This document shows positions 11,511-12,259 of a stretch of 64,000 bases of DNA, in pieces. Numbering within the stretch: position 1 is the stretch's first letter; every line of letters begins with the position of its first letter. Origin of the DNA: Escherichia phage EF1-1; the sequence record PQ571289, one strand, 5' to 3'. The translations under genes were made by a program, and so were the position numbers. The notes beneath the pieces were generated by a model. That model was not told the origin of the DNA. It did no database searches and saw only the letters and a program-made list of their open reading frames with translations.

Positions 11511-11993
11511 ATGTCACAAGAACAAGATAACACAATTCAAAAATATGCTCGACCAGAAGAAGTAGTTGAGATTCCGTTAGATGGAAACAGATCTGTTACT
11601 TTCCGTATTATAAAGTGGAGTCCATCTAAAGTGTTTGACAGGATTCCAGAATTGGGTAGTGTTCTGGTTGTTCCTATGACTATGTATAGCACAGCAACAA
11701 TGTCCGCAGACGAAGACCTTGAGTCACGTATTGCTATGGCACTGATCCAACTTTTTGCAGGTTTGGAAGAAAAGAATTTAACTGTCTTTTTGCGTAAAAT
11801 TTTAGATGAGGTTTATACTCAAGACGGTTATAACGTTGCAGAAAATTTTGATGAATTATTTATGGCTCACCCAGAACTAGTGTTAGATCTTACTGCTAAA
11901 GTTCTGGAGGTAAACTACGGCCCTTTTTTCAAACGAGGTTTCGGAAAACTGTTCACACAGCTTCAGGCGATGACGAGTTTAGCAGCAAATTAA
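11511..11993 (+). CDS. Putative tail assembly chaperone (zero-frame product)
   Basis: 160 aa ORF directly upstream of the tape measure gene; contains a slippery heptamer near its 3' end. Confidence 0.45.
   Translation: MSQEQDNTIQKYARPEEVVEIPLDGNRSVTFRIIKWSPSKVFDRIPELGSVLVVPMTMYSTATMSADEDLESRIAMALIQLFAGLEEKNLTVFLRKILDEVYTQDGYNVAENFDELFMAHPELVLDLTAKVLEVNYGPFFKRGFGKLFTQLQAMTSLAAN
11924..11930 (+). other. Candidate -1 ribosomal frameshift slippery site (T TTT TTC)
   Basis: X_XXY_YYZ heptamer in the zero frame of the chaperone gene; the -1 frame is open from 11900 to 12259. Confidence 0.45.
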
Positions 11994-12259
11994 CACCTGC
12001 GATTGAACATGCTATCGACACAGCAACGAAAACCCTTACTTTGAAGTGGTATGAGGTTATTCTTTGCAAAGTCGTTAAAGATACCTCGGAAACACTGAAA
12101 ACATTGGATAACTACGGTGTAGATTATCTTTTAAAACTATATGAGTATTTAACATACGAAGAGTATGTTGAAGCCATGTATGTTAAAGACACTTCAATAA
12201 AGAGAAAACATCAAAACCAGACAAATAAAATGTCAGATTTGTTTAAGAAACTTGTTTAA
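11930..12259 (+). CDS. -1 frame extension of the tail assembly chaperone (fusion product about 249 aa)
   Basis: ORF 12041..12259 is in the -1 frame relative to 11511..11993 and that frame stays open back across the slippery site. Confidence 0.4.
   Translation, partial: QTRFRKTVHTASGDDEFSSKLTPAIEHAIDTATKTLTLKWYEVILCKVVKDTSETLKTLDNYGVDYLLKLYEYLTYEEYVEAMYVKDTSIKRKHQNQTNKMSDLFKKLV

Follow-up and report, generated by a model that had tools for sequence, protein, structure and literature searches.

A conserved frameshift in the tail chaperone genes of tailed phages was first shown for the lambda G/GT pair (Levin et al. 1993), and Xu, Hendrix and Duda (2004) extended it to tailed phages in general; these reports, and the later lambda chaperone work by Xu, Hendrix and Duda (2013, 2014), are summarised in PMC5009743. 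The annotation of Moogle, a Felix O1-like phage, has included a chaperone with a frameshift since 2015 (PMC4319497). For the Vandenendeviridae (Pakpunavirus) and the Andersonviridae, a -1 frameshift was argued in December 2025 from an invariant GTTTTT (PMC12846349). The same paper relates these clades to the Vequintavirinae and Stephanstirmvirinae, and for neither of the two does it describe a test of the chaperone gene region.

The window analyzed here is the whole stretch of 64,000 nucleotides from Escherichia phage EF1-1 (PQ571289). As judged from its sequence and that of its relatives, the chaperone gene in this window is very probably expressed with a programmed -1 ribosomal frameshift of the kind known from lambda G/GT. 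Over the 4.8 kb that surround the slip site, the window is 99.6% identical to Klebsiella phage ZCKP1 and 97.8 to 99.5% identical to the other listed phAPEC8-like phages (Phapecoctavirus, Stephanstirmvirinae). The genes are arranged in the order sheath (9566-10939), tube (10986-11465), chaperone (11511-11993), an open reading frame (ORF) in the -1 frame that runs to 12259, and tape measure (12280-14268). The sheath gene matches phrog_205 and DUF3383. The tail tube gene, located on the plus strand and encoding 159 amino acids, matches phrog_280 and PF11681 (KPP10_Orf10 = Phage_Tube_PhiTE), and its homologue is named tail tube protein in the record of phage JohannJBalmer. The tape measure gene, also on the plus strand, has a TTG start and encodes 662 amino acids, the putative client of the chaperone. 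Its assignment in a preliminary description of this DNA is supported by a match to phrog_16051 over residues 1-662 (E = 0) and by the RefSeq annotation of ZCKP1, which reads "tail length tape measure protein." In the record of phage CB7, the sheath, tube and tape measure are marked "MS/MS confirmed," and there is no such mark on the chaperone or the small ORF that follows it.

The zero-frame ORF at 11511-11993 (plus strand) encodes 160 amino acids, which are presumed to be the major short product (TAC-N). This protein matches Pfam PF21822 (Phage_TAC_15) over residues 29-143 at 1.6e-23, scoring 84 bits where the cut-off is 22. It also matches phrog_3840 "tail assembly chaperone" at 4e-55. By these family matches and by its position between the tube and tape measure genes, 11511-11993 is a tail assembly chaperone gene, as had been proposed for the ORF upstream of the tape measure. 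In an AlphaFold2 model built with 22 homologues (pLDDT 73.9), the chaperone fold ended with a helix at residues 121-141, and residues 142-160 had a pLDDT below 50. Since the modeled fold ends at residue 141, the slip site, at F139-F140, lies at the end of the folded domain. A Foldseek search of this model against the PDB gave no significant match, and the 249-amino-acid fusion described below had no sequence match in the PDB at E values up to 1.

The sequence of 11915-11940 is CTACGGCCCTTTTTTCAAACGAGGTT, which is read in the zero frame as GGC (11919), CCT (11922), TTT (11925), TTC (11928) and AAA (11931), encoding G-P-F-F-K. The heptamer TTTTTTC at 11924-11930 is phased T_TTT_TTC (X_XXY_YYZ) in the chaperone ORF. 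A second in-phase heptamer, C_CCT_TTT (11921-11927), overlaps this core, and together they make up the predicted slippery decamer C_CCT_TTT_TTC at 11921-11930 on the plus strand. The -1 frame is closed by a TAA at 11897-11899 and then remains open from 11900 to the TAA at 12257-12259, and both heptamers lie inside the 94-nt overlap of the zero-frame and -1 ORFs. Joining 11511-11930 to 11930-12259 yields 249 amino acids, of which 140 are read in the zero frame and 109 in the -1 frame. The position and phase of T_TTT_TTC, the open -1 frame from 11900 to 12259 and the fusion of about 249 amino acids (about 140 plus about 109) had all been proposed in the preliminary description, and each was confirmed. 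The predicted junction of the fusion (TAC-NC) spans ...VLEVNYGPFFQTRFR..., and by the codon layout the same peptide (..NYGPFFQTRFR..) would result from a slip at T_TTT_TTC or at C_CCT_TTT. Its C-terminal part, 109 amino acids plus the stop, corresponds to 11930-12259 on the plus strand. A +1 frameshift was ruled out, since stops confine the open part of the +1 frame to 11983-12006.

A T-rich heptamer followed by an open -1 frame could be a functionless coincidence in a genome of 39% G+C. With a crude gene set on both strands, 60 in-phase XXXYYYZ heptamers (Y = A or T) were found in the window, and T-rich ones are common among them, with five in-phase TTTTTTC, which speaks for such a coincidence. 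The -1 frame stayed open for a median of 8.5 codons over the 60 heptamers. For the two heptamers at the chaperone site it was open for 111 and 112 codons, and the next best in the window reached 41. The chaperone-site heptamers were also the only two of the 60 at which the -1 ORF passes the zero-frame stop. This rarity indicates that the configuration is not a by-product of base composition. Moreover, the configuration is kept across clades in which synonymous sites are saturated, as shown below, and the comparative sequence data can be taken as having effectively refuted coincidence already; we regard it as extremely improbable.

The homologous locus was compared in Stephanstirmvirinae and their relatives (phiWec186, JohannJBalmer, phi92, KP2025 and KP13-16), in Vequintavirinae (18-1-2, rV5, SSE121, Hena1, pEp_SNUABM_01, KB57, CB7, CR9 and UPEC06), in Aeromonas phage 4L372D, Rheinheimera phage Barba1A, Vibrio phage S4-7 and Salmonella phage Felix O1, and in four metagenomic contigs whose chaperones are 41 to 62% identical to that of the window. 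Across the compared loci, the chaperone identity to the window drops to about 30%. The in-phase T_TTT_TTC with a -1 ORF was present in 13 Stephanstirmvirinae and Vequintavirinae loci besides the window, and also in phi92, 4L372D, Felix O1 and the four metagenomic lineages; these loci are phylogenetically related, so their counts overstate the number of independent events. At the homologous place, T_TTT_TTC was in phase in all compared loci except Barba1A and S4-7. A conserved (L)E.N(Y/F)G.FF motif ends in the heptamer, and the -1 ORF opens slightly upstream of it. For 19 related loci, the distance from the end of the -1 ORF to the start of the tape measure gene was 0 to 78 nt; in three loci with intervening sequence or genes, among them CR9 and 4L372D, the -1 ORF ends farther away. 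This agrees with the earlier suggestion that the locus mirrors the conserved chaperone frameshift of many tailed phages, as heptamer and -1 ORF persist even where the chaperones are only about 30% identical, and Felix O1 still has both.

In the Stephanstirmvirinae, the site is extended to the tandem C_CCU_UUU_UUC. The two exceptions carry other heptamers. In Barba1A the Phe-Phe motif is lost, and an in-phase G_GGA_AAG lies slightly downstream, inside the overlap with its -1 ORF. Vibrio phage S4-7 has A_AAT_TTT in the overlap. These two loci indicate that the conserved thing is a slippery site with an open -1 frame and not one particular sequence.

The synonymous sites of the heptamer were examined in a codon alignment of 14 chaperones, in which 12 columns contain an invariant residue with degenerate codons. 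The codons vary in all seven upstream invariant columns and in the Tyr139 column; one of these varying columns is another invariant Phe, with TTT 6 times and TTC 8 times. In contrast, all 14 sequences have TTT for the first Phe of the heptamer and TTC for the second, and the codon before them (Pro or Cys in the alignment) always ends in T. Two other columns have frozen codons, namely Asn138, which precedes the heptamer by three codons, and Gly147, a short way past it. Nucleotide conservation near the site is partly confounded by the conserved residues (NYG.FF) and by dual coding. The synonymous sites are saturated between most pairs (pS 0.57 to 0.94), indicating that the invariance of the heptamer does not stem from recent common ancestry.

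The same fusion could be produced by transcriptional slippage, in which RNA polymerase adds one U at the run of six T, giving mRNAs with U7. The site is a homopolymer of six T, and a T-rich motif has been reported in related clades too (PMC12846349). The protein sequence does not separate the two mechanisms, because an inserted U gives an identical product (GPFFQ...). The runs described for transcriptional slippage in bacteria, however, comprise about nine A or T (PMC5009743), compared with six here, and the run was never T7 or longer in about 20 loci. T_TTT_TTC is fixed in one phase with C at position 7, which is required for tRNA re-pairing and not for slippage of the polymerase. G_GGA_AAG of Barba1A and A_AAT_TTT of S4-7 are ribosomal slippery sites without a long homopolymer. 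Transcriptional slippage is, on this evidence, very unlikely to be the source of the long form, and ribosomal frameshifting is the preferred reading.

The -1 extension behaves as a coding sequence. Downstream of the chaperone stop, its dN/dS was 0.04 to 0.13 wherever dS was computable, and an excess of third-position changes was detected in 24 of 24 pairs. The -1 peptides align over their full length in 15 loci. From these comparisons the extension is judged to be under purifying selection, including stretches upstream of any start codon. The -1 peptide of the window matches only families without known function, namely phrog_16039 (1.2e-44) and phrog_10409 (3.9e-9). Between the extensions of the window and of Felix O1 (phrog_4963), no similarity was detectable by BLASTP (E = 1.6).

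In a rival reading, the ORF at 12041-12259 (TTG start, 72 amino acids) would be a second gene, translated independently, with the heptamer being merely two conserved Phe codons. A separate small ORF is called in many public records, with the RefSeq name "hypothetical protein," and in some relatives an ATG follows soon after the chaperone stop (phiWec186 at 4004, KP13-16 at 3992). About half of the Phapecoctavirus records, on the other hand, call no gene there. The TTG at 12041 is not preceded by a Shine-Dalgarno sequence, and the positions of the candidate start codons vary among loci. The phi92 record gives ribosome-binding sites for genes 129, 130, 132, 134 and 135 and none for the small ORF, gene 133. 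In Hena1 and KB57, a start at the first ATG, GTG or TTG leaves only 42 to 43 amino acids, and conserved sequence under purifying selection (ISKVVQRAIDYAR.NSSL.WFDYLWCRALK...) lies about 48 codons upstream of that first possible start. With no start codon upstream, that part can be reached only from the chaperone frame. No locus has a stop in the -1 frame between the small ORF and the heptamer, and the synonymous sites of the heptamer are frozen. An independent second gene is therefore very unlikely, about as much so as slippage of the polymerase, and the -1 ORF is better read as the extension of the chaperone. When the 249-amino-acid fusion was searched against about 5.8 billion proteins, no homologue carrying both parts in a single ORF was found; the 41 matches were all 158 to 175 amino acids long, indicating that the zero-frame stop is always retained.

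Under programmed ribosomal frameshifting, most ribosomes would read 11511-11993 to its stop and make the 160-residue short chaperone. A minority would slip back by one base on U_UUU_UUC (11924-11930), with tRNA-Phe in both the P and the A site, or would do so one codon earlier on C_CCU_UUU. The slipped ribosomes would then read the -1 frame to 12259 and produce the 249-residue long form. This form keeps the first 140 residues, which include the whole folded chaperone domain, and replaces the 20-residue tail with a pLDDT below 50 by the 109-residue extension. If the lambda gpG/gpGT pair is a guide, the N-terminal part common to both forms may coat the tape measure protein (12280-14268), and both forms would be absent from the virion. 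In the rare long form, the extension may recruit the tube protein (10986-11465), its expected partner by analogy with lambda gpV, and so start polymerization of the tube.

The preliminary description had proposed a search for a stem-loop or pseudoknot downstream of the heptamer, and pseudoknot-free folds gave no conserved or unusually stable structure there. The minimum free energy of 11931-12030, the 100 nt after the heptamer, was -17 kcal/mol, compared with a mean of -17.4 kcal/mol for shuffled sequences (z = 0.13). Consensus folds of five Stephanstirmvirinae and nine Vequintavirinae loci reached -0.98 and -0.31 kcal/mol, respectively, with essentially no covariation. A conserved 3' stimulatory structure was dropped as a candidate after these values, and the slip appears to proceed without the need for one.

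Upstream of the heptamer, a Shine-Dalgarno-like GGAGGT is located at 11906-11911 on the plus strand, separated from the core by 12 nt (11912-11923). Its predicted duplex with the 3' end of 16S rRNA has a dG of -10.7 kcal/mol, and 0.6% of the background 18-nt windows reach -10 kcal/mol or lower. An element of -9.3 kcal/mol or lower was found in 11 of 20 loci, including Felix O1, where CTGGAGG lies 13 nt upstream of the heptamer. The Glu codon that contributes to the element is GAG in 15 of 18 loci, where local codon use would predict about 5.6; of the Glu codons in the structural genes of the window, 24% are GAG. The element is weak or absent in KP13-16, KB57, CB7 and 4L372D, indicating that it cannot be essential. 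In dnaX and many IS elements, stimulation by a 5' Shine-Dalgarno sequence is established (PMC5009743). IS elements also make use of U_UU.U_UU.C, a member of the most efficient class of -1 sites in E. coli, H_HH.U_UU.Y (PMC4066793). By analogy with E. coli dnaX, the upstream GGAGGT may raise the efficiency of the slip.

The conserved layout may be an SD-like (G)GAGG followed, after about 10 to 13 nt of spacer, by U_UUU_UUC at the end of LE.N(Y/F)G.FF, without 3' structure. This layout was seen in Felix O1, Vequintavirinae and Stephanstirmvirinae. In Plateaulakevirus the heptamer is kept and the SD-like element is absent, and in Barbavirus the heptamer is swapped for the lambda-type G_GGA_AAG. 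It is tentatively suggested, with considerable doubt, that the cassette is an ancient, nearly frozen recoding signal in which the balance between short and long chaperone depends on 5' pairing between rRNA and mRNA and not on 3' structure.

No joined coding sequence was present in the public records inspected for Phapecoctavirus and relatives. The 266 bases after the chaperone stop are given as "hypothetical protein" or as no gene in the 60 Phapecoctavirus records listed, and the inspected records of relatives give the chaperone and the small ORF as two separate entries. The literature searched contained no description of a frameshift for Phapecoctavirus, Stephanstirmvirinae or the phAPEC8, phi92 and rV5 groups. 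What is new for Phapecoctavirus is the frameshift itself, which is unannotated in the public records checked and has already been proposed for sister clades. The predicted slip site common to Felix O1-like through phAPEC8-like phages and the tandem heptamer of the Stephanstirmvirinae are also new, as is a possible 5' SD-like stimulator. The two ORFs should be annotated as one joined coding sequence for the long form of the chaperone, which corrects the annotation of phAPEC8-, phi92- and rV5-like phages; these are widely isolated coliphages and Klebsiella phages that are candidates for therapy. The finding adds to the myovirus clades known with one common slip site and leaves the understanding of frameshifting and of tail assembly unchanged. 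It also provides a natural series of variants, with tandem or single heptamers, with or without the 5' SD-like element and with a swap to G_GGA_AAG, which could be used to study the product ratio.

Among the known systems, the E. coli dnaX cassette combines a 5' Shine-Dalgarno sequence, the heptamer A_AAA_AAG and a 3' stem-loop. The window resembles dnaX in the proposed -1 slip of E. coli ribosomes on a double-homopolymer heptamer and in its SD-like GGAGGT, a possible stimulator, about 11 to 13 nt upstream, which is the range of Shine-Dalgarno spacing that stimulates -1 shifts. It differs in its heptamer, in having no 3' stem-loop in the folds and in an SD-like element that is not shared by all relatives. 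In the window, moreover, slipping would lengthen the product, presumably at a low efficiency and not at 50%.

Phage P2, with its E and E+E' products, is reportedly a myovirus case of tail chaperone frameshifting on a T-rich slip site, said to have been described by Christie and colleagues in 2002. Its gene order of sheath, tube, chaperone with a -1 frameshift and tape measure, and its contractile tail, are as in the window phage. P2 is small and temperate, whereas the window phage is lytic and about 150 kb in size.

The Felix O1-like phages have a homologous tail module, with a DUF3383 sheath, a KPP10_Orf10 tube and a chaperone that matches phrog_3840 and phrog_1613. Like the window, Felix O1 itself has an in-phase T_TTT_TTC at the end of (L)E.N(Y/F)G.FF, with CTGGAGG 12 to 13 nt upstream and a -1 ORF that runs to the start of the tape measure gene. 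Its extension belongs to phrog_4963, unlike that of the window (phrog_16039).

Lambda is a siphovirus that uses G_GGA_AAG, whereas the window phage has a contractile tail and U_UUU_UUC, and no sequence similarity to gpG was detected for the chaperone, whose family here is Phage_TAC_15. The lambda frameshift is not known to require a strong 3' structure, and in this the window agrees with it, as its folds gave none. An excess of short product and a long fusion with a common N-terminal part, as for gpG and gpGT, are predicted here from the sequence, and one relative, Rheinheimera phage Barba1A, has the lambda heptamer G_GGA_AAG itself at the corresponding position.

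The extension, that is, the -1 frame part (11930..12259) of the long chaperone form, continues for 266 bases past the chaperone stop (window 11994-12259). Over these bases, 63 of the 64 Phapecoctavirus records were at least 99% identical, whereas identity across the surrounding 4.8 kb (window 9500-14300) was only 95 to 99% in 57 records. This difference suggests that the extension is no less constrained than the neighboring sequence, although the comparison is limited by the short length of 266 bases.

Downstream of the slippery heptamer T_TTT_TTC (11924-11930), the motif GGTTTCG (window 11937-11943) was nearly invariant at the aligned positions of the homologous loci L003 to L016 and L021 to L024, and the variant in rV5 was GGTTTAG. 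The motif lies 6 nt 3' of the heptamer in the Stephanstirmvirinae and 9 nt 3' of it in the Vequintavirinae, and it is not present in Felix O1, a more distant relative with the same in-phase heptamer. The motif translates as G-F-G/A in the zero frame and as R-F-R in the -1 frame. Because the spacing is group specific and Felix O1 lacks the motif, its conservation is probably due to the constraint of coding in two frames and not to an RNA element.

Between the extension frame and the tape measure gene, Barba1A carries a gene annotated as "DNA binding protein" on the minus strand (L018, 3632-4270), CB7 has two extra ORFs on the plus strand (L011, 4300-5370), and 4L372D has a gap of 321 nt (L017, 3705-4024). 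In phiWec186, a reverse-strand gene is found 3' of the tape measure gene (L003, 6246-7259). These extra genes and long gaps, which some relatives have next to the chaperone and tape measure genes, may be mobile insertions.

The records of three relatives contain annotation errors. The chaperone is named as a second "tail tube protein" in the JohannJBalmer record (L004, 3501-3983). In the UPEC06 record (L013, 3582-3953), its start is placed at an internal ATG, giving 123 aa; this ATG is the first in the open frame. A "hypothetical tRNA" is annotated within the sheath gene of phi92 (L019, 1925-2017). GenBank records of "Campylobacter phage" B15, C7, C11, and A13b, with C. jejuni as the stated host, were among the matches of at least 98%, B15 to the Phapecoctavirus window at the DNA level and the other three to rV5 at the level of the chaperone protein. 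Either these host labels are wrong or the isolates were contaminated, probably.

The tube gene stops at 11465 and the chaperone gene starts at 11511; the 45-nt gap that separates them holds a terminator-like hairpin on the plus strand (window 11471-11490), AAAGGGCA-GAAA-TGCCCTTT, followed by TTATCATT. Because of this hairpin, the chaperone and tape measure genes could be transcribed less than the sheath and tube genes. In the rV5 record, the feature annotated in the corresponding gap is a promoter, not a terminator.
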